Virus record (IMG/VR): IMGVR_UViG_3300028591_000004
Span: 32,001 to 96,000 of that record
DNA: 64,000 nt
Direction: 5' to 3' (one strand)
Origin: a virus
Taxonomy: Duplodnaviria; Caudoviricetes
The notes under the pieces were generated by a model. It was not told the DNA's origin, made no database searches, and saw nothing but the letters and a program-made list of their open reading frames with translations. The translations under genes and the position numbers were made by a program. The first letter of the stretch is position 1, and each line of letters opens with the position of its first letter. This document shows, piece after piece, positions 4,170-34,122 of the stretch.

Positions 4170-4174
4170 CTTTC

Positions 4175-7932: not shown

Positions 7933-8118
7933 ATGTTTAAGGCTCCGTACACCGTGTTTCTGTCTGGACTGGACAATCCGTACGACTATCTCAGAGTTAA
8001 CAGCCTTGACAAAGCTGCTGATCTCTGGGCTGGATTCCCTCTTCGTGATGTTGTCGTTCTTGACGACAACGCGAAGAAAATTCCCGTCAGCTTGCTCCGT
8101 AGCATCGCCGGAGCATGA
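7933..8118 (+). CDS. Small early hypothetical protein
   Basis: SD AGGAGGT. Confidence 0.6.
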   Translation: MFKAPYTVFLSGLDNPYDYLRVNSLDKAADLWAGFPLRDVVVLDDNAKKIPVSLLRSIAGA

Positions 8119-8133
8119 AAGGGGTGCAAGCGA

Positions 8134-8310
8134 ATGAGTTTTGAATGCGCTTCGATCTTGGTGATGATCGCATACCCGATAGTGGTGTTACTCGTGTTCT
8201 TTGGAATCCCCTGGTACTTCCGGCAAATGAAAGAGTGGAACGACCGCCATCGCTCCACTCGGTTCAAGAGCCCCAGAAGGAACAACCGGTTTAAGCATCA
8301 CAGGCGTTAA
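8134..8310 (+). CDS. Small membrane protein (58 aa, not in ORF track)
   Basis: MSFECASILVMIAYPIVVLLVFFGIPWYF... hydrophobic helix then basic tail; SD AAGGGG. Confidence 0.5.
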   Translation: MSFECASILVMIAYPIVVLLVFFGIPWYFRQMKEWNDRHRSTRFKSPRRNNRFKHHRR

Positions 8311-8389
8311 CCCTCAGGAGCATCGTCATTATAACAGACGGTGCTCCTTTTGTCTACAAAATAAAAAATGACTAACAAGGAGGTACAAC

Positions 8390-8716
8390 ATGTTCTTTTC
8401 TTATATCTTTAATAAACCTACTTCTAACCAGAAGAAGGTTTTTGAAGCAGTTTCTCCTATCATAGAAAGAGTTTTCCCTAAAGCTACTTCATTTGTCTCA
8501 TGTCAGCACAACGAAGTTATCTTCACTTGCGGATACACTGAACAAGTTTCACCTTGCGAACAGAAATGCTATCCACCAGAAGAGAACAAACTTGATCAGC
8601 TTGCTGATTACCTGAATAAACTCTCTTACTCTCAGAATAGCAAGATAAAGTTTCAAGTCTGGTGCGAAGACATCGGAGGCGCAATCCCTATGGGTATAGT
8701 AGCTTCTTGGGATTAA
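8390..8716 (+). CDS. Hypothetical protein
   Basis: SD AAGGAGGT. Confidence 0.65.
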   Translation: MFFSYIFNKPTSNQKKVFEAVSPIIERVFPKATSFVSCQHNEVIFTCGYTEQVSPCEQKCYPPEENKLDQLADYLNKLSYSQNSKIKFQVWCEDIGGAIPMGIVASWD

Positions 8717-9211
8717 TCCTTCTCCCGGCTAAGCATCCGGGTTAACAACTGCTTAATTCGAAAAGAGCACCCAGCCGCAAACTGGATGCTCTTTTCGGGT
8801 TTTACCCGAACTGGAGTGCCTCCGGTATCAACGCAGTTGCAGCTGCGAAGAGAGGAGGGGTATCCATGCCGGATATCCGCCGGATGGGCGACGATTATGT
8901 TGTCGTCCTGAGGGGGAAGATCGTTAGATTCGAGTCCTACGATGCTGCGTACGCCGCGTGGGAGGAGGACTAGCGTCTTCACCATTCACTGTTATTTTAC
9001 CATAGGCACATGGTAAATACAAGCGTTTTCTATCGCTTTGAAATAGACCCTTGCCGTGGGAAGCGGCCTTTGCGGAAGCACTCCTGCCGCATCGTATCAG
9101 TCAGGGTTGACTACCCCGATTAGGGGCATCGCCTCGTCAGCCGTCAGTTCCACGAAACGGAACATTGCTCAAATATTTTGCTCAGCGGGAAACCGCAGAA
9201 AGGAAGGTACC

Positions 9212-11635
9212 ATGAATACTATCACTAAGATCAATCTCTTTGAGAACACCACTGAAGAAATTGCAGTATTCTCTTCCCAGTTCACCCGTAAGCTGGAGTC
9301 CATGGGTGTTGATGTGTCCAAAGCTATCGTCAAAGTCAATGCCAACACTCCCAAGGGAAAGAAGGACGAGACGGAAGAAGCCGAAGCCAAGGTTCGTGCT
9401 CTTCTGACCACCATGTGCAGTCAGGGTTATGTCCTGAACGGTGTTGCTTATCGTCCTTTCCTCGCCGGTGCTTCCGATGCTCGCAAGGCCACTTCCACCT
9501 GGATCGACGAGAAGATCCAGGCTGAACTCGGTCGTTGGTGCCTTTGCGGACTTCAGACCAAGGATATGACCATGGCTATCAACAAGTACATGGCATATCT
9601 GGGTCTGCTGACTTCTGCCAGCAAGCCTTTCGTCGAAGTTTTTGGCCGCACGGTTGATATCCGTCGTGTCGCGGTCGTTGCTGATCACGAGATCACCGTC
9701 AACGCCAAGGTTGACCTCGTGTCCATGTACAAAGTACAGAAGAACACTAATCGTTCTTTGGCGATCTGCACTTTCGACGGATTCGGTATCATTCGGGACA
9801 CTCTGACCGATGGCGAATCCGTTACGATTCGTGGTCCGTGGCTCAAGGCTTTCGTGCAGGCCACCAACTGGAGCGAAGTCGCTGCTTACAGCTTCTCCAA
9901 TGGCGGCGATGCCACGTTCAAGGACATCTTCGGCAACACCGTCAAGATGAAGGATGTTGACGTTATCCTGACGGCTTCCTGCTTCAAGGCTGCGAAGCTG
10001 TACAAGTCCTGGAAGCAGTATCAGGATGCGTTCGAAGCGTTCGGTCACGAGATCTGCGTTTGCGTTCGTGAACACGCTCCCAGCCTGAAGGGACTTCCTT
10101 ATCAGCAGGGTCAGACTCTGCTGGGCGATCAGGACGACGCTCTGAGCTTCATGATGCACGCCAAGAAGACCGTGTACAAGTATCATGACGCTTACGAAGC
10201 TGCGAGCCTTCTCCGCAAGGAGCATAGACTTGCTGCTCGGATGTATCCTGCTCTTCTGAACGAGAAGTTCACCGCAAAGAGCATTCAGGAGAAGTACGAG
10301 AGCAAGCGGAACGAGATGCTCGGTGGAAGGATTCCTGAAATGGGATACAACGCCTTCCTCGCTCCTGATATGACGGCGTTTGTGCAGCATCTCTTCAACA
10401 TGCCTGTAACAGGCTCCCTGAAGGCTGGAGAATGCTCCTGCGTCTCTTTCGAACAGGGTCCTGTGGACGTTACCCGGAATCCGCATCTGGACAACGCTCA
10501 TTGCATTCTGAACAATGTGAAGAACATGCCGTTCGCCACTCGCAAGAGCCCGACCATGTTCATCAACGTTCTGGATACGACCACCATCCAGCTTCGCGCT
10601 GACTATGATGGAGATCATATCCTTGCTTCTCAGGATGCGAAGCTCCTGTCCCTGGTCAACAAGACCTATGACGAGCTGAAGAACATTCCCTATGACTGGG
10701 ATGCTCCCTCTGCTCCGAAGGCTCCTGTGACCAAGTCCGCGATCTGCAGCTTCATCACGAATCTGCTTCACGGTTCTGAGATCGGCATTTATGCTGACAC
10801 TCTGACCAAGATGTGGAATAGTGAGTACAGCGCTGACACCTGCGGCTGGCTGACTTATGCAGGCAACGTGCTGATTGACTCTGCGAAGCATGGCTCCGTG
10901 AAGATCAAGAAGCCAGATGACGTGAAAGCTCTGTCCGCTGTTCCGCTGCCTGAGTTCTGCCGCTATGCCAAGGCCGACTCCGAGACTCCTGCGAACTCTT
11001 CCTACTGGGATGAGATTCGGGAGTACACCGGCACTCCTCGGTGCGAGTACTCCGGGTCTTTCCTGGATATGTACAGCCGCGCCATCAAGGAGAACGTTCC
11101 AGAAACCTTGACGATTGACGGCCTTGATGACGAGATCTTCGACCCCGCCGAGTTGATGATCAATCCTCATCGCAAGCTGATCCCCGGACTGACCCGTAGG
11201 GGAGTCTACAACAAGGAGACGAACACCTACGAGAACTGCGGCATCTTCCAGACTGTTGCGTTCCGTCATGCAGACGAATGGAACAAGCTGATTGCCGGCG
11301 AAGACATGTCTCATCGTGACGAGTGGGAGAAGTCCCGTCGCGAGATCGCTCTGAACGAGTTCATTACCTACTGCCGGGATCTGTATGCCGGTATGGGTAT
11401 CGACATCTCCAGCAAGAGCGACGACTGCATCCTGGACGCTGTCTACGATGCGGTTATTCGCGGCATCTTCAACGTCAAAATGACCGATGGCATGATGACT
11501 GCCGTTATGCAGTGCTTCTGGCTCTGCTTCGGCGATCGTGTTATCAAGACCCTTCAGTCCAAGAATCATCGCCTGAGTGACGACGACCTCGTCTTCGACG
11601 ATGACGATGAACTGTTCGACGACTCCGATTGCTAA
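9212..11635 (+). CDS. YonO-like single-subunit double-psi-barrel RNA polymerase 1
   Basis: Start re-set to ATG 9212 (SD AAAGGAAGG); motifs DGFG, TRNPHL, catalytic ADYDGDH, IDSAKHG of the YonO/cRdRP-like family. Confidence 0.85.
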   Translation: MNTITKINLFENTTEEIAVFSSQFTRKLESMGVDVSKAIVKVNANTPKGKKDETEEAEAKVRALLTTMCSQGYVLNGVAYRPFLAGASDARKATSTWIDEKIQAELGRWCLCGLQTKDMTMAINKYMAYLGLLTSASKPFVEVFGRTVDIRRVAVVADHEITVNAKVDLVSMYKVQKNTNRSLAICTFDGFGIIRDTLTDGESVTIRGPWLKAFVQATNWSEVAAYSFSNGGDATFKDIFGNTVKMKDVDVILTASCFKAAKLYKSWKQYQDAFEAFGHEICVCVREHAPSLKGLPYQQGQTLLGDQDDALSFMMHAKKTVYKYHDAYEAASLLRKEHRLAARMYPALLNEKFTAKSIQEKYESKRNEMLGGRIPEMGYNAFLAPDMTAFVQHLFNMPVTGSLKAGECSCVSFEQGPVDVTRNPHLDNAHCILNNVKNMPFATRKSPTMFINVLDTTTIQLRADYDGDHILASQDAKLLSLVNKTYDELKNIPYDWDAPSAPKAPVTKSAICSFITNLLHGSEIGIYADTLTKMWNSEYSADTCGWLTYAGNVLIDSAKHGSVKIKKPDDVKALSAVPLPEFCRYAKADSETPANSSYWDEIREYTGTPRCEYSGSFLDMYSRAIKENVPETLTIDGLDDEIFDPAELMINPHRKLIPGLTRRGVYNKETNTYENCGIFQTVAFRHADEWNKLIAGEDMSHRDEWEKSRREIALNEFITYCRDLYAGMGIDISSKSDDCILDAVYDAVIRGIFNVKMTDGMMTAVMQCFWLCFGDRVIKTLQSKNHRLSDDDLVFDDDDELFDDSDC

Positions 11636-15604: not shown

Positions 15605-15676
15605 AGTCGCGTCGCCAAGAGGCAAGGCAACGGACTTTGACTCCGTCATTCGCACGTTCGATTCGTGCCGCGACTG
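15605..15676 (+). tRNA. tRNA-Gln(TTG)
   Basis: Acceptor AGTCGCG/CGCGACT; anticodon arm ACGGA-CTTTGAC-TCCGT; T-loop TTCGATT; CCA not encoded. Confidence 0.9.
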
Positions 15677-16189
15677 CATTCGTACATGAGCGAACATAAC
15701 CTACTGACAGGCTGACATCCTACTGTCCGTGTTGTGTGTGCATAGTTACCTTGGGGCACGTTAAACAAGTGTCGAACAGTCCAGTCTGTTCGGACACCTC
15801 CTTTCTAAGTTTGCTAAGGGTCTTGTCAGTACTGTGAAGTTTCTCTCTTCTGCTCCGGATCTGACCGTTCGTGCGGCCAGCCCTCCGCACAGACAATTGG
15901 GATAGATGGGTTGTCTGCGGATGCGGATCTGCTCGGGAAGAGAATTAAACTTTATTCGGCCGCTGTTGAAGGGCGGCCGAAAGAAAAAAGGAGTGAGAAG
16001 CGTGACTGGTTTTGTCCCGTACAGCAAGATGAGTAAGAAACAGAAAAAAGAAAAGGACAGACAGAACCGCACTCTGTGGAATATGCCGTGTATAACTAAA
16101 GTAAAACCCAGTGGTAAAATATACAGCCGGAAAGATAAATCCATGACTGGAAATCCTTATTCCCTGTATTGAGGGTGCCGCCGAATACA

Positions 16190-17040
16190 AAAACTGAGAT
16201 TGTTCGCATTTGCGGCTGAAGGTTAGAGTTGAGATTCTCTTGCCGGAGAAGAATGACTGAGATAGGCCTATTATCTAAAGAATAATAAAATCCTCTATAG
16301 AACAATGTTTGAGAGTGGAAATTGTCTTGTAAAGAATACAATTCCAGAATGTAAGTACTGTTTCTCTCTCTATGATTGTTTGTTTTCATTTAAGTCTTTT
16401 GTTTTTATACGCTTCTTAACGGAGTATATCTCTTTATGGAGAGATATACTCCTAAAGCTAAAACAAAAGCCTTAAAGAAAACAAATTTCTAAAGAATGAT
16501 TTGGATTCTATCTCAAATAAACGAATTGCTAAAGAAATAACTGAATTTTCGATAGTAGAATTGATTCATTGAATTATCCTTCCGGAAACAAAAAGATTCT
16601 TCTATAGGAGAATCTATCTCCTATGATTGGATTTCTGAACAAAGAAAAAGATTCTATATAGCAGGATTAATCTTAATAAAGAGGATTCTATTAGAACAGA
16701 ACAGTTCTCTTTCTAATAAATCTCTCTCTTCTCTTTCTCTTTCTAATAAATCTCTCTTCTCTCTTTCTTCTTTCCTTTTTCATTTTGTCTCTCCTATAGA
16801 ATAATCCTTTTCTATAAAACAATTTCTTTTCTCTGTTATTGTCTTATAGAAAACAATCCCTTTCTATGAATTGGACTCTTTAAAAAGAAACGGTTCTCTA
16901 TAAAATGATCTTATCTCATATAGAACAATCTTTCTGAGAAAAAACAACTCTCTATAGAAGGATTGATTCTTTATAAAAAGAACTTCCTGAAGAAAGATTC
17001 TTTCTTTAATATATATATTATATATAGATAAGGGAAGTGA
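16190..17040. other. Long AT-rich non-coding region with degenerate CTATAGAA repeats and a palindrome (candidate origin)
   Basis: No credible ORF; 13-bp inverted repeat 16421-16452; tandem duplication with 30-nt period from 16707; about 9 TCTATAG(A)A-like words. Confidence 0.45.
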
Positions 17041-17044
17041 ATAT

Positions 17045-17117
17045 GCCGGTATAGCTCAATTGGCAGAGCAGCTGATTTGTAATCAGCAGGTTTTCGGTTC
17101 GAGTCCGAATACCGGCT
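17045..17117 (+). tRNA. tRNA-Thr(TGT)
   Basis: GCCGGTA/TACCGGC acceptor; GCTGA-TTTGTAA-TCAGC; TTCGAGT T-loop. Confidence 0.95.
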
Positions 17118-17144
17118 CTTTTTTTTTATACAAGGAGGGATAGT

Positions 17145-17492
17145 ATGTATTGGACAATAGAAACACAGCCGGAAAATAAAGGCTTTTATTTGTGTACATG
17201 CGGAAATAATGTTGTAATGTTGTATTTCAACGGTAAGGAATGGATTGAAGGAGAAAATATTGTTTCGGATAAAGTTATTGCGTTTAGATCTTTACCGCAG
17301 CCTTATCAGCCAACAACAACGGACGCTATTTCCGACAAAATAGATATTCTTTCTTTACGTTTAAGCATCCTTAAGGATCTTTTACCTTACACGAATACAA
17401 ATCTCAACGATAAAATTGCGAATCTTTTAGACGATACAATTATGCATCTCGGTTCATACATCTCTATTGCAAAATACGAAAAAGAAAACTAA
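17145..17492 (+). CDS. Hypothetical protein with DUF551-like N-terminus
   Basis: W....QP...G.YL...VIAFRSLPQPY pattern; SD AAGGAGG. Confidence 0.55.
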   Translation: MYWTIETQPENKGFYLCTCGNNVVMLYFNGKEWIEGENIVSDKVIAFRSLPQPYQPTTTDAISDKIDILSLRLSILKDLLPYTNTNLNDKIANLLDDTIMHLGSYISIAKYEKEN

Positions 17493-17505
17493 AGGAGAAA
17501 TACAA

Positions 17506-17703
17506 ATGCAACTGTTGCTTTCTACCGAAAACAGTGTTTACCGAATCGAAGTCAAGAAACCTACAAAACAGGAATTAGATAATATTACTCAGCCCGATTT
17601 CGAAGGACAAACCAGCCCCAAACAGGTTTATGTCGACAGACAGCTTCAGGAATTAGCCAGGGCGTTAACGCAAACCGGATACAGATACGATTGCTACGAA
17701 TAA
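17506..17703 (+). CDS. Small hypothetical protein (paralog of 21091-21279)
   Basis: SD AAAGGAG; shared IE.K.P / P..Y..L..L.R.L..TG..Y pattern. Confidence 0.6.
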   Translation: MQLLLSTENSVYRIEVKKPTKQELDNITQPDFEGQTSPKQVYVDRQLQELARALTQTGYRYDCYE

Positions 17704-17710
17704 GGAGAAA

Positions 17711-17878
17711 ATGCTTTACACAGTTTATGTTTCAGCAACAATCGACAAAACAGTCGAAGTAGAAGCAGACGATCCGGTATACGCAATGTCCCTTGCAGAA
17801 GACAAAGTTTGTTCTATGTTAAGGGGAACTCCAGATGTTACAGCCGTAGAGGCATACGAATATACTGAGCGTGACTGA
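17711..17878 (+). CDS. Small VEA-motif (DpnD/PcfM-like) protein, not in ORF track
   Basis: SD AAGGAG; MLYTVYVSATIDKTVEVEADD. Confidence 0.5.
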   Translation: MLYTVYVSATIDKTVEVEADDPVYAMSLAEDKVCSMLRGTPDVTAVEAYEYTERD

Positions 17879-17929
17879 CGGAAACACATTAGGCGTGACT
17901 GGCCGCAAAACATTGAAAGTGACTGAAAA

Positions 17930-18157
17930 ATGAAAATCTACGTACTTGTTAAAAACATCGAAGCGGACATCGATTACAGTTGGGATTACACTCCTTACGA
18001 AATTATCGAAGCAAATACGTCTCGAGCACGACTGGAAGAGATAAAAAAAGAATACGAGAAACTAAACGGCGGGGAAGTATGGGAAGAATATTACGACAAC
18101 TTCACTTGCTGTTACACAATCGAAGAAGTAGAACTGAAAGGAGAAAGCCTACAATGA
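17930..18157 (+). CDS. Small acidic hypothetical protein
   Basis: Overlaps the start of the next gene. Confidence 0.55.
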   Translation: MKIYVLVKNIEADIDYSWDYTPYEIIEANTSRARLEEIKKEYEKLNGGEVWEEYYDNFTCCYTIEEVELKGESLQ

Positions 18158-18468
18158 ACTTTGAACAGCAGAATATTCCTGTAGACAGAGTTTACAGTCT
18201 CACACGACTGGTTTCAGCCTGCGAAAAGAACAATGTCGGTTTAGAGAATGTTGTTTTCTTTCAAAACGGTTTTCAGGTGTTGTTCGAAGACATGCCGGGA
18301 GATGCGGTTTTGCACGACTATTCCTACGGGAACAAGGCGTGTATGTGGGAAACAATAGGCTTTCCGTGGGATTGCTCCGACGTATCTGTTCACGAAGCAG
18401 AAACACTCGCAAAAATGCTCGGTGCTTTAAAGACCGGAAATGACTGGAAATTATTCGAGGAAGAATAA
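18154..18468 (+). CDS. Hypothetical protein
   Basis: SD AAAGGAG; start re-set to MNFEQQ. Confidence 0.6.
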   Translation: MNFEQQNIPVDRVYSLTRLVSACEKNNVGLENVVFFQNGFQVLFEDMPGDAVLHDYSYGNKACMWETIGFPWDCSDVSVHEAETLAKMLGALKTGNDWKLFEEE

Positions 18469-18470
18469 AC

Positions 18471-18725
18471 ATGAATGTTAAAGACCTGTACAGCCAAATT
18501 TTAGATCTTCTTCCAGACAGTCCTCCGGACAGCAGCGACTGGCACGGCTTCTGGGCTAATAAACACGATCAGGAAATCATGTGTGAGTCAGATACCCAGG
18601 CAGATGTGTTAGCCGATTTCTTCGAGGATTTAGGTTTCGATGTTATGCATACGCATCACTACAACTACGGTGAATGTGTTGTCAACGAGGATTGCTACGG
18701 CTGGTGGAGTGTTTATCCGGACTAA
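18471..18725 (+). CDS. Small acidic hypothetical protein
   Basis: Tightly packed ORF in the operon. Confidence 0.6.
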   Translation: MNVKDLYSQILDLLPDSPPDSSDWHGFWANKHDQEIMCESDTQADVLADFFEDLGFDVMHTHHYNYGECVVNEDCYGWWSVYPD

Positions 18726-18734
18726 GGAGAGAAA

Positions 18735-18923
18735 ATGAGATTTTACGTAACATACAAAATAAATGCAAGGTATGAGGCTCTTGTAGAGGCAAACACAGTC
18801 GAAGAAGCACGGGAGAAAGCAAAAGAAGAATATTGGGATGCGAACTTCGGTGAATGCCACGACATAGACGGTGATCAAATAAGTGTTGAGGATGAAAACG
18901 GTAATATTCTTTGGGAGAAGTAA
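18735..18923 (+). CDS. Small VEA-motif (DpnD/PcfM-like) protein
   Basis: VEANTVEEAREKA; SD AAGGAG. Confidence 0.55.
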   Translation: MRFYVTYKINARYEALVEANTVEEAREKAKEEYWDANFGECHDIDGDQISVEDENGNILWEK

Positions 18924-19408
18924 ATGCATAAAGCAATAAGAGCTGTTTTAAGGTCTATTATCAAGCACAAACGTATTTGTAAAATATTCGAACAATGGAA
19001 ATGGTTCAATCACTTGTGTTACGAAGAAGCACAGGCGGTGATCGGAAATCGACCTTGGAAGTAAGGAATTTTACGATGTGGGTAGATGCTAAAGCTGTAT
19101 GCTACGATCTTGCCGGAATGTGGGCAAGCCGAAAGAACAGAAGAAAATCCAGATGGAAACGTAAATTTGCAAGAATGGGAATTAAAATTTAGAAGCATAG
19201 AACTGGAGTTGATTCTTAATGTACGATCTAACAAAAGCAAATGCGGATATCAAACGCCCAAGAGAATGGAATATTCTAGCCTCTCGATTTGATGAATATT
19301 CAAAAGAAACTTTTGACAAAATAATGCAGTTAATTGAACTAATTAAACAAGAAGAATAAATGTTTTATTCAGAATGGGACCAAAAGAAATGCTGAAACGA
19401 GGTAAAAT

Positions 19409-19657
19409 ATGCTAAAATGGACAAACTGTTCTTCTCCAGATGGACATACATATTTAAAATGCAAAAGCTGTAAACAGGAATTTTATGTTGTTTCAGCCGC
19501 ATATTACAGTAAAACAATCAATTTCTGTCCTTACTGCGGAGACTACGCACATAGGATTAAAAACTTAAGAGGTAAAGAAGATGAAGACTTTGGAGATTTA
19601 CAAGCAGGATCTGACTCCGGAAGCCCAGGCGAGACTGGAAGAGTTTACGAATGGTGA
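19409..19657 (+). CDS. Zn-ribbon protein
   Basis: CKSC...FCPYCG. Confidence 0.55.
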   Translation: MLKWTNCSSPDGHTYLKCKSCKQEFYVVSAAYYSKTINFCPYCGDYAHRIKNLRGKEDEDFGDLQAGSDSGSPGETGRVYEW

Positions 19658-19891
19658 CGATAACTATGATGTCTTTCCTATTGCAACACTCGAAGTAGAA
19701 GAAGACGATCAAAGCGGATGATCCTGGAAGGAGATTTCAATGAGCATAAAAGATAAAATGGTTTTAAATCAATACGCTCAAAAAATATTCGGGTGTTTTT
19801 ACGACGATCTCTCGGAAAATGAGGCACAAATGCTTATCGGTTATGTTCATGAACACGATCCGGAATTTGAAAATCACAGAGGAATAATTCA

Positions 19892-20170
19892 ATGACCAAA
19901 GCGGAACAGATTAATTTTGCACTTGTCAAAGTCAGCGAGATATTGAACATTATTCGTCCCAACGACTGGGCTGTCAAATATATTAAAGTCGAAGACGTAA
20001 ATTCCCTTGGACTGTCTGAATATCAAAAATCATATTACGGCATTGTTTCCGGAGAAGAATATTTCATGGTCTACATAAGCAATCAGCTGAGATATGTTGT
20101 GAATGTAACCGGTGACAATGTAATGACTTCACTTCAGGAATTAATTGACGTTCTTGCAAAGAAATTTTAA
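19892..20170 (+). CDS. Hypothetical protein
   Basis: SD AGAGGA. Confidence 0.6.
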   Translation: MTKAEQINFALVKVSEILNIIRPNDWAVKYIKVEDVNSLGLSEYQKSYYGIVSGEEYFMVYISNQLRYVVNVTGDNVMTSLQELIDVLAKKF

Positions 20171-20338
20171 AGGAGATCGAACATGGTAAGTAACGCGTTG
20201 AGCTCAATAATTATGTTTACAGAAGCTGTGAGTTTAATCGGTCTCGTATGCACTGGTATCTGTTTAATTGTTTCGTACGCTGGTGAATTTATTGAAAAAT
20301 ACATTGAATGGTAAAACGTAAAGTCTGAAAGGAGAGGA

Positions 20339-21025
20339 GTGTACATGCTTTACGAGGTTGCCGGGAACCTGTTGACAAATGAAAAAATAAATATCTTTTG
20401 TCATCAGACAAACTGCAAGGGAAAGATGGGAGCCGGAATTGCAAAAGCAATAGCTGAAAAATACCCCATTGTTTCTCATGAAAACTATAAATATTGTTCA
20501 AGCATGGGCTACAGCAGGAACATTCTTGGGACAAATTTGTATGTGAAAGTTTCACCCCAAAGAACCTGTGTCAATATGTATGCTCAATACAATTACGGGA
20601 GATCTGGCATTTATACTGAATACGATAAGTTCCAGTCTTGTTTGGACAGATTAGCCGAGAAACTGAACAAATCCAGTCCTTCTTTCAATGTTGGGTTCCC
20701 AGCCGGAATCGGATGTGGAAGTGCCGGAGGAGACTGGAATTTTGTAAAGCCAATGATTGAATACTTTTCAACCGAGATTAAACAAAACGTATATCTTGTT
20801 TCGTACTCGGATGAAAGCAGGCATTTGTTTGATGTCACAGCCATGTTTATAGGCAACTCCATGTCTATCTCAAACGAATGGCATAGAATCAACATTCAGG
20901 TTTTACCCAAAAACTACCTTGTAAAGTGTGGGAACACCCAGAAATTCTACAGTTCGAAATCTTCATTGCTGAATGACTGGCACTGTATTGAGGAAATCGA
21001 ACTTCCGGATCTACCAATGCGTTAA
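20339..21025 (+). CDS. Macro domain protein (ADP-ribose processing; Poa1p/DarG-like type)
   Basis: GNLL, HQTNCKGKMGAGIAKAIAEKYP, PAGIGCGSAGGDW. Confidence 0.85.
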   Translation: MYMLYEVAGNLLTNEKINIFCHQTNCKGKMGAGIAKAIAEKYPIVSHENYKYCSSMGYSRNILGTNLYVKVSPQRTCVNMYAQYNYGRSGIYTEYDKFQSCLDRLAEKLNKSSPSFNVGFPAGIGCGSAGGDWNFVKPMIEYFSTEIKQNVYLVSYSDESRHLFDVTAMFIGNSMSISNEWHRINIQVLPKNYLVKCGNTQKFYSSKSSLLNDWHCIEEIELPDLPMR

Positions 21026-21090
21026 TATATTTTAATCTTACTTAAGGTATAAGGCATAAGGTCATTCTTCATTCTGAAAGGAGCTTTCTT

Positions 21091-21279
21091 ATGCGTATAC
21101 ATGTGTACAAAGACAACGAGGATTTCTATATCGAGTTTAAAGACCCCCAAAATACAGAGCTCAAAGAAGAAAACGAACGATTAACTCCAGAAGAACTTTA
21201 TACAAATAAAAAACTGGAGATGCTTACAAGACTTTTAACAACTGGCTGTAAGTATAAATTGTTGTCCTGTACGCAGTGA
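21091..21279 (+). CDS. Small hypothetical protein (paralog of 17506-17703)
   Basis: SD AAAGGAG. Confidence 0.55.
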   Translation: MRIHVYKDNEDFYIEFKDPQNTELKEENERLTPEELYTNKKLEMLTRLLTTGCKYKLLSCTQ

Positions 21280-21361
21280 AATCAGTTTCGCGAACTGTAA
21301 ATATAACGTCTGTTTGGGCGGCACGGGACAGCCGCCCGGACAGATTAAGAGGAGGATTAAA

Positions 21362-21622
21362 ATGAACAGGGGAATCCGCAGGAAGAACGATTACAATAAA
21401 GCGATCAGGAAGCAGAATATTGCACGTTTTGTTTACGGCTTTCAATGGTACGACAATCTTCACGAATACTCCAAAGGAAAAATTCATTGTTCCTGTCCTC
21501 TGTGCGCGGCCAAGACCAATCCGAAGCGTAAAAGGATTGGGCATGGATATACAATCAAAGACACCAAGAGAGTGAATGAAATGTCGTACGAGGAGGCGTA
21601 TATGTGTGAGGAAGAATTTTAA
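21362..21622 (+). CDS. Small basic Cys/His protein
   Basis: SD AGGAGG; KIHCSCPLC. Confidence 0.6.
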   Translation: MNRGIRRKNDYNKAIRKQNIARFVYGFQWYDNLHEYSKGKIHCSCPLCAAKTNPKRKRIGHGYTIKDTKRVNEMSYEEAYMCEEEF

Positions 21623-22028
21623 ACAGTTAATTCTTAAGTTTGGGGATAGCGGCCAGTTAATTCTTGATCCAGAGGATATTGAATATTTATCAGCTTGGAA
21701 TATTGTAAAGCATTTGATGTTGATTGACTGTTCAAAAGCGATTTACGAAAGAGATATTGCTAAGGATATTTGCTTAATTCTAAAAAAGTCTGCGAATAAA
21801 CAATTTGATTCTTTCGGCACAGTGTTTGAAAGACTTATGTATTCCAGAGACATTGTTACGCTGCGTTTTGTGTATGAAGACGAAACTCAGGAAATAGACG
21901 TCGACTGGAAAGATGAAAATGAATACGGGTCCGACAACAAAAGGCAGACATTTGCAATGAAAGGCGATAGTCTTTTAATTGCGATAGGAAAACTGAAAGC
22001 AAAAGATTATCTTAAAGGTTTCAATTAG
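21606..22028 (+). CDS. Hypothetical protein
   Basis: GTG start after GGAGG (start uncertain). Confidence 0.55.
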   Translation: MRKNFKQLILKFGDSGQLILDPEDIEYLSAWNIVKHLMLIDCSKAIYERDIAKDICLILKKSANKQFDSFGTVFERLMYSRDIVTLRFVYEDETQEIDVDWKDENEYGSDNKRQTFAMKGDSLLIAIGKLKAKDYLKGFN

Positions 22029-22099
22029 GGGCATTAGTTTAACGGCTAAAACTTTCGCTTTGCACGCGAAGGATAAGGTTTCGACTACCTTATGCTCCA
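22028..22099 (+). tRNA. tRNA-Ala(TGC)
   Basis: GGGGCAT/ATGCTCC acceptor with the G3:U70 Ala determinant; TTCGC-TTTGCAC-GCGAA. Confidence 0.85.
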
Positions 22100-22302
22100 C
22101 ATCAGGAGAGAAATCTCCTGAATATGCGGTTGCGCATAAGCATTAATCCGGAGCTTGCCACTCCGGGCCGTCAATTTAATATTGACTGAAAGCGGTGCAA
22201 TGAGTTCAGTCAAAAATGTCGCACAACTCCATTTGCCAGCAATACAATTATTTGTATTATTGCAAACGCGACGTAGGCGGAAACAATTATGTTTCCGTTT
22301 AT

Positions 22303-22389
22303 GCGGATATGGCGGAATAGGCAGACGCCAGAGACTTAAAATCTCTTGCTCAATAGAGCGTGTGGGTTCAAGTCCCACTATCCGCACCA
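22303..22389 (+). tRNA. tRNA-Leu(TAA)
   Basis: GCGGATA/TATCCGC acceptor, long variable arm, CTTAAAA loop, encoded CCA. Confidence 0.93.
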
Positions 22390-22473
22390 GTCCCCCAAAA
22401 GGGGACCGATTTCTGGCAACCGGGAAAGACCGGCATACTAACGGTTGATTGGCACTCTGGAAAGACAGAGATT

Positions 22474-22566
22474 TGCAGGTGACGGAATAGGTAGACGTGA
22501 AAGGCAATAACATAGTGCCGGGGACGCCACTGTGTGCTATGTGAGGTGCAAATCCTCACCCTGTAT
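22474..22566 (+). ncRNA. tRNA-like RNA with 6/6 acceptor/T stems and no anticodon arm (copy 1)
   Basis: TGCAGG/CCTGTA; D-like GGAATAGGTAGACG; GTGAGG-TGCAAAT-CCTCAC. Confidence 0.6.
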
Positions 22567-22570
22567 CTAT

Positions 22571-22655
22571 GCAGCGATGGCCGAGAGGCTTAAGGCATCT
22601 GTCTTGAAAACAGAAGAGTGTAAAAGCTCCGTGGGTTCAAATCCTACTCGCTGCG
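22571..22655 (+). tRNA. tRNA-Ser(TGA)
   Basis: GCAGCGA/TCGCTGC; TCTGT-CTTGAAA-ACAGA; long variable arm; G73. Confidence 0.92.
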
Positions 22656-22661
22656 TTTTAT

Positions 22662-22739
22662 GCTCCACTAGCTAAGTTGGTTGTAGCGACGGCCTTATAA
22701 GCCGTGTCATTAAGCTGGGTTCGAGCCCCAGGTGGAGTA
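22662..22739 (+). tRNA. tRNA-Ile(TAT)
   Basis: GCTCCAC/GTGGAGT; ACGGC-CTTATAA-GCCGT; TTCGAGC T-loop; A73. Confidence 0.85.
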
Positions 22740-22763
22740 CTATTTTTTTTAAAGGAGATTGAT

Positions 22764-22978: not shown

Positions 22979-23758
22979 ATGGCAAAGAAACTCGTAGCAG
23001 AAGTAACTAACAACGAAGGCGAACAGCAGGAAGTACAGTTCAATGAACAGACGGCGTCCGTGAGAGTAGAAATCAAGCGGGTCCCTGTAGAGAAAGCGCG
23101 TATCAAAATTGTCGGAGACTCTCCTTTGCTGGTCCATGCGTGGAGTGAGAAAGTCAAGAAAGAACTGCTTGCGAATATGCAGATGGACAAGCGGGAGAAA
23201 AAGCAGAAGACCCACGAAAAGAAAGACCCGTTTGCGGACTTTGTCGAAGCTGCTTATTGGATTACTCCGATGCCTGATGTTCGGGGTCTTGAACCCGAGA
23301 AGCAGATTGAACTGTTCGAAAAAGCAATCGACGACGGCGCCCAGTTTGGTTTCCCAGTTATTGCGTTTAAGAAGGCCGCTATTGCTGCCTGCTTGAGTTC
23401 TGGCTTGATTAAAAGTGTGTCTCTGATGCGGCGGTTGTTCCATGTCAATGCTGTGAATGGAGCTCATGTTAAGTCTTCTCAGGAGCTGGCCATTCTGAAG
23501 ATTGAAGAGCCTCCGGAACTGTCTGAAGACGTTGTTAAGGTTGGTCCTTTCAACAATCGTCAGCCAGACCTGAGATATCGCCCTTCTTTCAGGAAGTGGA
23601 GTACAGAACTGGAACTGAGCCTGATTAAAACCGGAATGTTTACGATGGAAGATATTGTTAATGCTATTGATATGGGTGGTTTTATGAACGGCGTTGGAGA
23701 ATGGCGAACCGAAAAAGACGGTGAATTCGGCAATTATCATGTCGAGATTACAGATTAA
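22979..23758 (+). CDS. Stand-alone RAMP/Cas7-like RNA-binding protein (putative)
   Basis: N-terminal IKIVGDSPLLVH strand, GFPVIAFKKA helix-start motif, and C-terminal Gly-rich loop GGFMNGVGEWRTEKDGEFGNYHV, i.e. RAMP layout; strong SD. Confidence 0.65.
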   Translation: MAKKLVAEVTNNEGEQQEVQFNEQTASVRVEIKRVPVEKARIKIVGDSPLLVHAWSEKVKKELLANMQMDKREKKQKTHEKKDPFADFVEAAYWITPMPDVRGLEPEKQIELFEKAIDDGAQFGFPVIAFKKAAIAACLSSGLIKSVSLMRRLFHVNAVNGAHVKSSQELAILKIEEPPELSEDVVKVGPFNNRQPDLRYRPSFRKWSTELELSLIKTGMFTMEDIVNAIDMGGFMNGVGEWRTEKDGEFGNYHVEITD

Positions 23759-23766
23759 GGAGGACT

Positions 23767-24294
23767 TTGATGGCCGCATTTGAATATCGGTTTAAAATGC
23801 CCAAGATGCATAAGGTTTCCGCGGATGTTGCTGGTAAGATTTGTCAGGAGTTGTCTGATTCAGAAGACGGTTTGACTCCCAAGCGACTGGTCGATGTAAG
23901 TCGTAATAAGAACGCTCCTCTTCACGATGAATTTGAATGGGACGACTCCATTGCCGGAGAAAAATATCGTGAGCAGCAAGCTCAGACACTGATCCAGCAT
24001 TTGGTTATTGTTCAAACGGACAATGAGGCTGAAAGGATCGTCAAGCTTACAAAGCAAAACAAAGACTCAGAAGATGCTGAAGTAAAAGATTATCCGGCAG
24101 ATCGTGGATTTGTTTCTACCGGGGAGCATAACACTCGATATGTTCCTCTTGCTTCGGCTTTAACTAATGATTTATGGAGAGCCAGCTTGCTGGAGTCTGC
24201 ACGAAAGGACAGTAGAATTTTTGTGTCTAAGTACAACAGGTTGGAAGAGCTGGCTGAGATTGTCGACGATATGAACAGATTCCTTGGTGCCTGA
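23767..24294 (+). CDS. Partner protein of unknown function between the RAMP-like gene and the array
   Basis: SD AAGGAGG; LTPKRLVDVSR...PLHDEFEWDDSIAGEKYREQQA motif; co-oriented and tightly packed. Confidence 0.7.
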   Translation: MMAAFEYRFKMPKMHKVSADVAGKICQELSDSEDGLTPKRLVDVSRNKNAPLHDEFEWDDSIAGEKYREQQAQTLIQHLVIVQTDNEAERIVKLTKQNKDSEDAEVKDYPADRGFVSTGEHNTRYVPLASALTNDLWRASLLESARKDSRIFVSKYNRLEELAEIVDDMNRFLGA

Positions 24295-24350
24295 AAGTAA
24301 GGAGACACTATAAGATCTCCCGGAGTGGATGAAAGGTCTGAACATGGTCA

Positions 24351-24773
24351 GGCAGCCATGGCGAGTACGGGTCAGTTGTTTTCGGGTAAGCAATGTCAAG
24401 GCAGCCGAGGTGAATTTTGTAAAGGTACGGTGCGCACGGGCAGCCATGTTCTGTTGAGTTGAGCTCTGCCGATGCACGTTAAGTTAAGTTGTGGCAGCCT
24501 AGGATGGGTATTGCACGTTTTGTTCCGCATCGGAGTGGCAGCCACGGTAAGTTCCGTTGGGTTTGTTGCGTGGTGAAGTGCGGCAGCCATGGTGTGTACC
24601 GGAGCTATTGGGAGTGCAAAGGTTTGGCAGCCTTGGTCAGTTGCGTAGTGTTACGGACGTGTATGTTAAGTTTCGGAACGGCAGCCTAGGTATGTACAGG
24701 TCTGTATGGGTCTCGTGCGAAATGGCAGCCAAGGACAGGAGCGTAATGTATAGTCCGCATGGGACGGGCAGCC
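24351..24773 (+). repeat. Array of 10 GGCAGCC repeats with 5-nt-phased variable spacers (putative guide ncRNA array, not a canonical CRISPR)
   Basis: GGCAGCC at 24351, 24400, 24439, 24493, 24537, 24582, 24626, 24680, 24724, 24767; spacers of 42, 32, 47, 37, 38, 37, 47, 37, 36 nt. Confidence 0.9.
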
Positions 24774-24883
24774 GATATAAAATTGTCCGTGCAATGTCAC
24801 AGCCAATCCAATTCGCGATGGGGAGACGCGATCAACAAATATCTCCCTGCTTTTATTAAACGAATAGTGAATTCACCAGTCCC

Positions 24884-24921: not shown

Positions 24922-25284
24922 ATGCAACTCATCCGACTTAATCTCGACGGGACAACCGAATTAATACCATTCAACCCAAAAGATTCATTTTCCCAAATCA
25001 TCGAATGCGAATACATCGAAATAGTTCGACCAAGAAACTGCAAGCATTCGCTCATCGTAGACGAAGAGGGAAGGTTGAAAGAAAACAAAATAAACATTTT
25101 AGCGTCATATCTTTACGGCACACATTTTCATTATCAGCCTATTATGGGAACAGTGCTTGTTTGTGATATTACGCCATACGGAGAAATAACCGGACTAACT
25201 GATGATTCTGCGATTGAATTTAAAAAGAAACTAGATGACATATATTTGTTTGCGTTTAACATGATAAAGAACGCACTTGAATGA
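24922..25284 (+). CDS. DUF3846-like phage protein
   Basis: IEIV...LIVDEEGRLK...N..AS.LY...PIMGTVLV. Confidence 0.7.
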   Translation: MQLIRLNLDGTTELIPFNPKDSFSQIIECEYIEIVRPRNCKHSLIVDEEGRLKENKINILASYLYGTHFHYQPIMGTVLVCDITPYGEITGLTDDSAIEFKKKLDDIYLFAFNMIKNALE

Positions 25285-25530: not shown

Positions 25531-25734
25531 ATGACAAAAGAAAAATATCAGGATGTTAAAGGCCTGTATGAAGGCAAACATGCTCCGAAAGAATATCATG
25601 TCTGGATGGTTATAGGCCCGGCAGGACCAATTATAGAGCGGAATATCTGGGGCCTGGATCAGGCTAAACAGTTTGTTCGCGGATCCTGGGATCACGAAAT
25701 CAGACGAGTTGAAGATGGGAGAATTATACCATGA
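25531..25734 (+). CDS. Small hypothetical protein
   Basis: SD GAGG; ATGA coupling to next gene. Confidence 0.55.
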   Translation: MTKEKYQDVKGLYEGKHAPKEYHVWMVIGPAGPIIERNIWGLDQAKQFVRGSWDHEIRRVEDGRIIP

Positions 25735-26345
25735 CATGGACACCTGTAGCGGAACAATTGCCTAAGGATTATATTAACTTGTTGATCACAGTTAAAGAAA
25801 AGAAAACAGGTAAAAGGTATGTAATGTCCTGCGTGTGGAGCAGTGTCATTGATCTTGAAACAGGAGAAATTATCGGCCCTCCGACTTTTGCGGATTTGAT
25901 TTCCGAAGACGGAAGAATGATTTTTGTAGACTACCAAAAAAACAAAAGCATTGAAATTTTAGCGTGGATGCCATATCCAAGTCCGTACGAAGACCAATTC
26001 AGGGTTATCGTTGCCGGATCAAGATCTTTCAACGATTATGCTTTGCTGAAAGACAAGCTTGACAAGGCGTTTTTAAAGCATAAACCAACATCTATCGTAT
26101 GTGGTGAAGCAAGTGGTGCCGACACTCTCGGAAGGCGTTACGCTGAAGAAAACGGCATTAAGATAGACAGTTTTCCGGCGGATTGGAATACGCATGGAAA
26201 GCAGGCCGGCTATATCAGGAACGAAGAAATGGCAGGCAATGCGGATGCGTTGATTGCTTTTCATGTAAATAATTCAGCCGGAACAAGGCACATGATTAAT
26301 ACAGCGAAGAAAATGGGGCTTCAAGTAAGAGTAATTAACATTTAA
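25731..26345 (+). CDS. DUF551-like plus SLOG (YspA/DUF2493-like) fusion
   Basis: WTPVAEQLP...AWMPYPSPY then VIVAGSRSF..Y, CGEASGAD, AGYIRNEEM, GTRHMI. Confidence 0.8.
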   Translation: MTWTPVAEQLPKDYINLLITVKEKKTGKRYVMSCVWSSVIDLETGEIIGPPTFADLISEDGRMIFVDYQKNKSIEILAWMPYPSPYEDQFRVIVAGSRSFNDYALLKDKLDKAFLKHKPTSIVCGEASGADTLGRRYAEENGIKIDSFPADWNTHGKQAGYIRNEEMAGNADALIAFHVNNSAGTRHMINTAKKMGLQVRVINI

Positions 26346-32985: not shown

Positions 32986-34122
32986 ATGTATTACTTTACA
33001 ATAAGGCAAAATAGAAAACCAGTTCAACTAAAATTCGAAGATGTATTGTTTGGAAATGTTGTAATAAATTCATTAAATACAGAATCTGATAAGACCGGTA
33101 CCATAACCAGAGCATTAGACGAAATACCTAAAGAGTTAACTGAAAAAGTAGATATAAAATCGATTATTGAATGGTTGAAAGAATTCAATAATAAAAACAG
33201 TTCTTTGTTTGAAGCTAATAGAGAAACACTGTATAGGCATTATAAAATTCCAAAGAAAACAGGTGGATGGAGGCCCATAGATGAACCTTGTCCGGAATTG
33301 CAAAATGCATTAGGAGAATTGGCCTCTTTTCTACAAAGAGATGTTGGTGTTCTTTATCATACATCTGCATTTGCATACATAGAAGACAGATGCGTTGTAG
33401 ACGTATTGAAAAAACATGCCAAGTTTAAGAGTAATTGGTTCCTGAAAACGGATTTAAGCGGATTCTTTCCTCACACTACTCTTGAATTTACAATGAAGAT
33501 GTTAAGTAAGATCTTTCCTCTATGTGAAGTTATGAAAGATCCGGAAGGGGGAAAAGCCTTAACTAAGGCAATTTCTTTGGGGTTCTTAAACAATGGATTA
33601 CCGCAGGGAACAAAGCTTTCGCCGTGTTTGACAAATTTCATTATGATTCCAATTGACCATCGACTGGCTGGTGAATTCTCCAAGCGTAAAATGGTTTATA
33701 CAAGATATGCTGATGATATGCATATTTCAGCGCAGGAAGAGTTCCCATTTAAACAGATGGTGAAATTTATTGAAAATACTTTTAAAGAATTTAGTGCCCC
33801 GTATGAAATTAAGGATGAGAAAGTTCACTATGGAAGTGTAAAAGGGAAGAACTGGATGCTTGGCTTAATGCTGAATGGCGAGTACAAGATAACAGTAGGA
33901 TATAGAACTAAGAAATATTTTAAAGCGGCTTTGTGTAACTTTATTCTTGATACTAAGAACAATAAACCTTGGGACATTGATGATGTTCAGCATCTGTCTG
34001 GTCAGCTTTCATATTACAGGATGGTTGAAGAGAATTATTTTAATAAAATTATCAATACAGCAAATAAAAAGTGGAACGTAGATGCAGAACAAATGATGAA
34101 ATCTTATTTGAAAATAGCATAA
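32986..34122 (+). CDS. Retron-like reverse transcriptase
   Basis: IPKKTGGWRPIDEP, SAFAY, KTDLSGFFP, LPQGTKLSP, YTRYADD; 378 aa; no maturase or endonuclease domain. Confidence 0.9.
   Translation: MYYFTIRQNRKPVQLKFEDVLFGNVVINSLNTESDKTGTITRALDEIPKELTEKVDIKSIIEWLKEFNNKNSSLFEANRETLYRHYKIPKKTGGWRPIDEPCPELQNALGELASFLQRDVGVLYHTSAFAYIEDRCVVDVLKKHAKFKSNWFLKTDLSGFFPHTTLEFTMKMLSKIFPLCEVMKDPEGGKALTKAISLGFLNNGLPQGTKLSPCLTNFIMIPIDHRLAGEFSKRKMVYTRYADDMHISAQEEFPFKQMVKFIENTFKEFSAPYEIKDEKVHYGSVKGKNWMLGLMLNGEYKITVGYRTKKYFKAALCNFILDTKNNKPWDIDDVQHLSGQLSYYRMVEENYFNKIINTANKKWNVDAEQMMKSYLKIA

Follow-up and report, generated by a model that had tools for sequence, protein, structure and literature searches.

The locus described here lies on the + strand of a stretch of Caudoviricetes DNA and consists of a 259-aa open reading frame (ORF), a second ORF and a non-coding array (24351 to about 24803), in that order. 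The stretch, 64,000 nt long and called the window throughout, is bases 32001–96000 of IMG/VR record IMGVR_UViG_3300028591_000004, a complete virus record of 150,780 bp with direct terminal repeats. Judged from its sequence, the locus is almost certainly a VIPR (Viral Interference Programmable Repeat) system of this complete 151-kb phage, most likely directed at rival prophages or co-infecting phages. Systems of the VIPR kind are already published, and the locus is a new member rather than a new system; what is new is a natural target set, a lead to the host and details of the RNA grammar. An earlier note on this DNA, made without database searches, had likened it to VIPR-type systems; the comparison was correct, the 259-aa protein being homologous to the Vipr of Escherichia phage SUSP1, from a family published in 2026. 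The observation made in that note is confirmed and its interpretation supported, with the qualifications given below. The parts of the locus are as follows (window coordinates).

22979..23758, + strand: vipr, 259 aa, a Cas7-like single-RRM RAMP (from a PDB sequence match, hhalign, an AlphaFold2 (AF2) model and Foldseek)
23770..24294, + strand: vap-like accessory gene, 174 aa from ATG 23770 (175 aa from TTG 23767)
24295..24352, + strand: leader between the vap stop and the first array unit, partly phased (AG-GTC, AT-GGT, CA-GGC)
24353..24769, + strand: staggered vrRNA array of nine units, U1–U9, with 8–11 pentamers each (from the phasing and the GGCAGCC spacing)
24769..24803, + strand: degenerate last unit and array end, ending CACAGCC; two pentamers alone still fit the pattern

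VIPR is described in two 2026 preprints. According to both, a phage-borne minimal RAMP, Vipr, coats YNNGG-repeat RNAs with one protomer per repeat, hides the GGY triplet, pairs the NN with double-stranded DNA and skips every third target base (bioRxiv 10.64898/2026.04.26.720920 and.720927). The first adds that VIPR silences transcription of competing phages, that its natural targets are competing phages and satellites, that a vap accessory gene usually lies 3′ of vipr, and that there are seven types, ‘staggered’ arrays with a 1-nt RNA overlap, and variant consensuses, of which those in its methods all keep the second G (bioRxiv 10.64898/2026.04.26.720920). VIPR has also been proposed to be older than CRISPR.

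The array is marked out by the heptamer GGCAGCC, which occurs ten times on the + strand in 24351–24773. The whole window holds 13 copies against 3.0 expected, a number that no shuffle reached. Successive copies are spaced by 49, 39, 54, 44, 45, 44, 54, 44 and 43 nt, seven of the nine spacings having the form 5n+4, and the DNA between the marks is phased as NN-G-[G/T]-[not G] (NN-G-K-H) pentamers. Of 60 pentamers in phase, 53 (88%) have G at position 3, 30 have G and 22 have T at position 4 (together 87%), and none has G at position 5, while positions 1 and 2 are variable. A scan for at least six of eight phased G-K-H triplets returns this tract alone, whether run on the window or on all 150,780 bp of the genome; shuffled windows gave 0–2 short matches. 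The array escapes Tandem Repeats Finder, and likewise a strict 7-of-7 G-K scan and a Fourier scan of G at period 5, because the −1 slips between units and the off-pattern pentamers break the long-range phase. Each unit begins with the fixed pentamer CA-GCC and ends NN-GGC, and adjacent units have one C in common. The units of the window, all on the + strand, are 40–55 nt long:

24353–24402, +: U1
24402–24441, +: U2, dinucleotides GA GA TT AA AC GC CG
24441–24495, +: U3
24495–24539, +: U4, dinucleotides TA TG AT AC TT CC TC GT
24539–24584, +: U5, with one extra base
24584–24628, +: U6
24628–24682, +: U7
24682–24726, +: U8, dinucleotides TA AT CA CT TG CT GC AT
24726–24769, +: U9, one base short

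With units that overlap by 1 nt there is no room for a structured 3′ tail or pseudoknot. A hammerhead-interspersed array was ruled out, since Rfam gives no ribozyme or other family within the array.

The two genes run directly into this array, as the earlier note had it: they are tightly packed, each has a strong Shine-Dalgarno sequence (AAGGAG 7 nt 5′ of the vipr ATG, and AAGGAGG in front of the second gene), and the first GGCAGCC, at 24351, starts 57 nt past the second stop. The neighbour had been given as 175 aa. That ORF is present, but its likely start is ATG 23770 rather than the listed TTG 23767, because AAGGAGG lies 5 nt upstream of the ATG and the resulting 174 aa is the length of the closest homologue. 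A scan of the + strand found neither a terminator-like nor a promoter-like site in the leader, and since the leader lacks a terminator the array is probably co-transcribed with vipr and vap. As had been noted, no cas gene or nuclease is adjacent; the ORFs and Pfam matches of the neighbours show none near the locus, and no CRISPR array either.

Searches of Pfam and NCBIfam with the 259-aa protein gave no match, and PHROG 4652, a family of unknown function, matches it. Its sole sequence match in the PDB is 36pp_D, ‘SUSP1 Vipr protein’ (phmmer E 3.8e-5), in an alignment that takes in the thumb (RYRPSFRKWS) and the G-loop (GVGEWR versus GVGDWR). A family profile built from 33 sequences aligns with SUSP1 Vipr over its full length (hhalign 98.6%, E 1.3e-15, 182 columns). 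The AF2 model (predicted local distance difference test, pLDDT, 87.9) comprises RRM strands and helix-1 together with a helical bundle, the thumb hairpin and the glycine loop, and its best solved matches in Foldseek are type VII Cas7 and Csm3, at E 2.8e-5 and weaker. Its parts, by residue, are:

1–36: N-terminal beta-hairpin extension
37–46: beta1, the first strand
57–118: helical bundle
127–140: RRM helix-1
180–204: thumb hairpin, including R199-Y200-R201
238–243: G-loop, G238-V-G-E241-W242-R243, before the last strand (253–257)

The RAMP layout read from the letters alone, with a first strand, a helix start and a C-terminal Gly-rich loop before the last strand, thus has its counterparts in the model at 37–46, 127, 238–243 and 253–257, and the AlphaFold and Foldseek check that the earlier note had proposed bears out the Cas7-like fold. 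In SUSP1 Vipr the triplet is held by H17, R138, D177, W178 and R179 (bioRxiv 10.64898/2026.04.26.720927). These align with H53, R201, E241, W242 and R243 of the 259-aa protein, which are invariant or nearly so among the 33 relatives, so that four of the five RNA-contact residues checked are kept and the fifth changes from Asp to Glu, a replacement found throughout the window clade. By alignment and model, then, the 259-aa protein is a full-length homologue of SUSP1 Vipr with a predicted Cas7-like fold.

More than 575 IMG/VR stretches encode Vipr relatives. The linkage counts given here cover 80 related viral loci that were fetched, or 81 for the survey of the partner gene. A phased tract lies on the gene strand, beside or near vipr, in all 80; one stray match was on the other strand. 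The partner, searched for with a family hidden Markov model, lies 3′ of vipr in the same orientation at 77 of 81 Vipr loci, and the other four are contigs that end just past vipr. The linkage of protein, partner and phased array, for which a neighbourhood survey had been suggested, therefore holds strictly across relatives, in the gene orders vipr-vap-array (as in the window) and vipr-array-vap. Relatives mark their unit boundaries with GGCAGTC or GGCAGCC and have 7–15 variable pentamers per unit. In 911 related pentamers the first base of the triplet is G in 89%, the second is G or T in 67 and 27%, and the third is T, C or A in 43, 35 and 22%. The guides themselves are not conserved: the seven in-phase guides of the window have none in common with 98 distinct related guides.

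For the target search, in-phase units were recast as NNxNNx... patterns and searched with mismatches allowed and with order-shuffled guides as the control; the constant CA of the first pentamer, which is unmatched in targets, was dropped from the guide. A first local set contained a gene fragment, on the viral contig L068, that is matched by U2 at 14 of 14 positions (L068:238-257) and by U8 at 15 of 16, the two sites lying 130 nt apart, with the one-base skip only. The gene is an Amidoligase_2, and the wider target set consists of 80 viral loci with homologues of it. In these loci, U2 has 4 perfect and 56 one-mismatch sites (shuffled guides: 0 perfect, a mean of 0.35 one-mismatch), U8 has 8 and 47, and U4 has 18 and 34 (shuffled none for either). 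The U4 sites are on the opposite strand, about 3 kb downstream of the amidoligase sites. Five of the 98 guides of related arrays also match this target set at no more than one mismatch, compared with none of 98 when shuffled. The predicted targets are:

U2: Amidoligase_2 gene of a prophage, sense strand, codons D-E-F-K-T-A-R
U8: the same Amidoligase_2 gene, sense strand, codons Y-I-Q-L-C-L-A-[L/M], about 130 nt upstream of the U2 site
U4: a conserved site in the TerL nuclease domain, antisense strand, codons T-E-G-N-V-I-H-Y (in the provirus L148), ACxGAxGGxAAxGTxATxCAxTA

All three sites are in frame (for U4, L148:9268-9290 is in frame with TerL at 8104-9693), and the skipped base is the wobble position of the codon. 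Target homologues differ freely at the skipped base and agree at the NN bases. With other skip lengths or pentamer registers there are essentially no matches; the signal comes with a skip of one and pentamer positions 1–2 only. Of 71 bacterial-genome loci with TerL homologues, most have the U4 site at 16 of 16 positions, and perfect sites are found in TerL homologues from genomes of Megasphaera, Veillonella, Acidaminococcus, Lachnospiraceae, Blautia, Roseburia and others. Five target records were queried, and three of them carry a provirus classification. Because the predicted targets are temperate phages of gut and rumen Bacillota, they suggest that the host of the window phage is likewise a Bacillota bacterium. 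The conserved terminase site of U4, present across many Bacillota prophages, illustrates how wobble skipping lets one short guide cover diverged rivals.

The other guides gave less. Exact gapped-pattern scans of IMG/VR and metagenome contigs with U7 and U3, the two longest, found no match, nor did a scan of five whole target virus records with U7 at up to three mismatches; for U1, U3, U6 and U7, four whole records of this kind gave nothing above the shuffled level. U1 has three exact viral matches at unrelated sites, where about one is expected by chance, and these were set aside as not significant; one of them is in frame at the N-terminus of a small serine recombinase. U6 has 12 exact viral (IMG/VR) matches in unrelated phages and samples (L251-L262), about the chance number, and is kept as a lead only. 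All 12 are open in the opposite-strand frame, reading [K/N][L/F]TQAGT[I/M], and some of the contexts are tail-fibre-like.

The locus fits the published definition of VIPR on every feature that can be tested in sequence (bioRxiv 10.64898/2026.04.26.720920). It is a minimal locus of vipr and one accessory gene in a viral genome, without a CRISPR array or other cas genes. Its array of adjacent non-coding pentamers, a triplet plus a variable NN, has nine units where the definition asks for at least four, and follows a related consensus, G-K-H, instead of the strict GGY. VIPR target sites have the form NNxNNx, often with x at wobble, and the sites of U2, U4 and U8 all do. The best comparison is the type II VIPR of SUSP1 (with that of a Pseudomonas fulva prophage; PDB 36pp), whose Vipr is homologous over the full length. 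Shared with SUSP1 are the order of vipr, accessory gene and downstream array, pentamers with two variable bases, the one-base-skip rule with its wobble alignment, other phages as targets and the lack of a nuclease. The differences are considerable. SUSP1 Vipr has 195 aa; the window Vipr has 259 aa, is extended by an N-terminal hairpin and carries Glu at the position of Asp177. Window triplets read G-[G/T]-[T/A/C], while those of SUSP1 arrays vary at the first G and without exception have T or C as third base. In the window the units are 40–55 nt long, overlap by 1 nt and lack a hairpin or pseudoknot tail, whereas SUSP1 RNAs are of about 100 nt, each with a structured tail. The window partner has no similarity to SUSP1 Vap1 at the sequence level, and may at most be a distant relative recognisable by structure. 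The type II features (a vrRNA of about 100 nt with a structured 3′ tail, and vap1) are thus absent from the window locus. The unit layout matches the ‘staggered’ VIPR arrays as described in the legend of fig. S18, in which successive units have one base in common (bioRxiv 10.64898/2026.04.26.720920); in the window this follows from the 5n+4 spacing.

Cas7 polymerises along guide RNA with periodic base flipping, and the backbone subunits Csm3, type VII Cas7 and Cmr4 have the RRM core, thumb hairpin and glycine-rich loop in common with the window protein (Foldseek E 2.8e-5 to 1e-3). Polymerisation on guide RNA with periodic base flipping is also reported for Vipr (bioRxiv 10.64898/2026.04.26.720927). 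Vipr differs from Cas7 in a period of 5 nt with three bases hidden, where Cas7 has 6 nt and one hidden, in a non-contiguous guide, and in belonging to a phage-borne system. Set against class 1 CRISPR effectors, the window locus has a single RRM and lacks a repeat-spacer array, Cas5, Cas6, Cas10, Cas11 and Cas1-2; of the class 1 CRISPR-Cas features the fold alone is common to both, the repeats and partner cas genes being absent.

Several points weigh against the VIPR assignment and its reading as interference with rivals. The triplet is not GGY, with T as second base in 37% of pentamers and A as third base in 28%. The SUSP1 Vipr pocket excludes purines at the third triplet base (bioRxiv 10.64898/2026.04.26.720927), and base recognition at the window locus therefore cannot be identical. 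The G-loop has Glu where SUSP1 carries an essential Asp177. The array units are without the structured 3′ tail or pseudoknot. Six of the nine guides have no convincing target. Finally, contact between the phage and its predicted targets is presumed.

The guides without a target leave some room for a system that is aimed mainly at host genes or defences, or at genes of the phage itself, and whose prophage matches are side effects of targeting conserved peptide-coding motifs. The guide searches covered viral loci and records, metagenome contigs and bacterial-genome loci with TerL homologues, and the 12 exact matches of U6 in unrelated phages and samples indicate that short gapped guides can match widespread motifs. 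We nevertheless regard this explanation as unlikely. The sites of three guides fall together in two genes of a single provirus group, two of them in the same gene; no guide has a self-match above the control level in the 151-kb genome of the phage, which also has no amidoligase homologue; and the natural targets of published VIPR systems are likewise competing phages and satellites (bioRxiv 10.64898/2026.04.26.720920).

The strands of the matches bear on whether the complex acts on double-stranded DNA or on RNA, by silencing or cleaving mRNA as type III systems or Cas7-11 do. U2 and U8 read in the sense of the amidoligase mRNA, with which they are therefore unable to pair, U4 is antisense to TerL, and the use of both strands of target genes argues for DNA. 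By cryo-EM, filaments on RNA were incomplete, and assembly was full only when a third strand of DNA was present (bioRxiv 10.64898/2026.04.26.720927). An action on RNA, towards which the RNA-targeting Csm3 and type VII Cas7 point as the closest solved folds outside VIPR, as does the ability of SUSP1 VIPR to form a guide-RNA duplex in vitro (bioRxiv 10.64898/2026.04.26.720927), is consequently very improbable.

That the array codes for protein, serves as a protein-binding scaffold or is a decayed repeat, and that the protein is a RAMP-like RNA binder with another role, we dismiss almost entirely: small ORFs can be drawn over the array, and the equivalent tract of Gordonia phage Pipp is annotated as a gene, but the position and strand of the tract are kept in 80 of 80 relatives whereas the dinucleotides are not (0 of 7 window guides common with 98 related guides), and, read with a one-base skip, these dinucleotides find in-frame gene sites far above shuffled controls.

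Interference by VIPR at this locus would proceed as follows. The vipr-vap-array operon would be transcribed as a single RNA, which would give nine short guide RNAs of 8–11 pentamers each. With a 1-base overlap of units the pentamer phase slips by −1 at each GGC|AGCC boundary, and a Vipr filament formed on one unit would be out of register on the next. On the pattern of the homologous SUSP1 complex, whose structure is solved, one Vipr protomer would occupy each pentamer, and His53, Arg201 and Glu241-Trp242-Arg243 would hold the G-[G/U]-[not G] triplet and leave the two variable bases exposed. The earlier note proposed such a polymer, with a 5-nt period, a bound G-led triplet and displayed dinucleotides, and homology to SUSP1 Vipr, for which this has been demonstrated, speaks for it. 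The exposed dinucleotides may then pair with double-stranded DNA read as NN-x-NN-x, a step with sequence-level support from three guides in which x is the wobble base. Binding to DNA would block transcription; the locus has no nuclease, and silencing has been demonstrated experimentally for SUSP1 VIPR. The most likely outcome would be the shutdown, within one host cell, of rival prophages or co-infecting phages. The lack of a nuclease and the guides matching genes of other phages on both strands fit DNA binding and the silencing of competitors, which had been considered more likely than cutting.

The earlier note also raised a distinct subtype, marked by a broader triplet and by the partner gene. 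This is plausible: the triplet is G-K-H, and the partner is unlike SUSP1 Vap1. We put forward only tentatively, as a suggestion with the odds against it, that an abundant clade of rumen and gut phages constitutes a VIPR subtype with an RNA grammar of its own. Its candidate traits are a strict first G with G or U as second base and anything but G as third; guide ends set by the −1 phase slip alone, at GGC|AG[C/T]C, in place of a structured tail; and a tendency to one off-pattern pentamer within each guide. The obligatory accessory protein, with its motif PLHxEFEWDD, may fall outside vap1-6. If the subtype is real, the base pockets of Vipr can be retuned and register alone can set the length of a filament. 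The tail-less, compact guides of 40–55 nt and the looser triplet of the locus may be of interest for VIPR engineering. Apart from the subtype, the locus is a well-resolved natural example of VIPR in a large uncultured phage, from which the one-base-skip rule was re-derived independently, with sequence as the sole source.

In each of the seven in-phase units of the window, exactly one off-pattern pentamer occurs, its triplet beginning with a base other than G, and the remaining two units have one ‘pentamer’ of 4 or 6 nt each. Among 98 related units, those with 0, 1, 2 and 3 off-pattern pentamers number 24, 51, 20 and 3, versus 34, 38, 19 and 6 expected. ‘Exactly one non-G triplet per unit’ was therefore rejected as a rule, being true in the window and a tendency in relatives. 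The off-pattern pentamer is never at the end of a unit, and in U2, U4 and U8 its NN still fits the target.

The partner protein has a conserved core motif, PLHxEFEWDD..A.E.YR..QA. It has no match in Pfam, NCBIfam or Foldseek, and in Atlas it matches viral hypothetical clusters alone. The profile of 31 partner sequences has no detectable similarity to SUSP1 Vap1 (hhalign probability 0.2%). In its model (pLDDT 87.5), which has a C-terminal helical hairpin, the fold of residues 13–129 weakly resembles winged-helix regulators and Z-alpha domains (Z about 5), and a winged-helix-like core is possible. From this weak fold match and by analogy with the predicted DNA-binding Vaps of the preprint, the partner probably binds DNA and helps to strengthen the block, as Vap1 does in SUSP1; we call this a reasonable guess.

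Six tRNA genes (Gln, Thr, Ala, Leu, Ser and Ile) lie within 15605–22740 of the window. Four are clustered at 22028–22740, directly 5′ of vipr, and the last ends about 240 nt before it. Downstream are genes for a DUF3846 protein and a YspA/SLOG-family (PF10686) protein, at 24922–25284 and 25731–26345, neither of them conserved beside Vipr in the related loci examined.

Two of the target loci carry genes worth recording. L068 (L068:1-5754, IMGVR_UViG_3300028591_002193) encodes a Vipr of its own at 2797–3504, an array at about 3553–4099 and a Vap at 4015–4620; by its matches to U2 and U8, one VIPR phage appears to target another. The DNA fetched for the other 153 target loci and records holds neither Vipr nor Vap. 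In the target provirus L148, a gene for an AbiEii-type nucleotidyltransferase toxin (9843–10685, − strand) lies right past the terminase gene.

Relatives also occur among named phages. Gordonia phages Pipp, UmaThurman, ODay and Ecliptus have an unannotated Vipr-Vap pair, with Vipr 29–34% and Vap 31–33% identical to the window proteins. Their hosts are Actinobacteria, and their order is vipr-array-vap in contrast to the vipr-vap-array of the window. A phased array adjoins the pair in Pipp (MN234179.1), where ‘gene 43, hypothetical protein’, between gene 42 (the Vipr homologue) and gene 44 (the Vap homologue), is the phased pentamer array (L082:3133-3360, about 33097–33324 of the record). Gene 43 is probably a vrRNA array miscalled as a coding sequence, and arrays of the VIPR type are thus being annotated as genes in public phage records.

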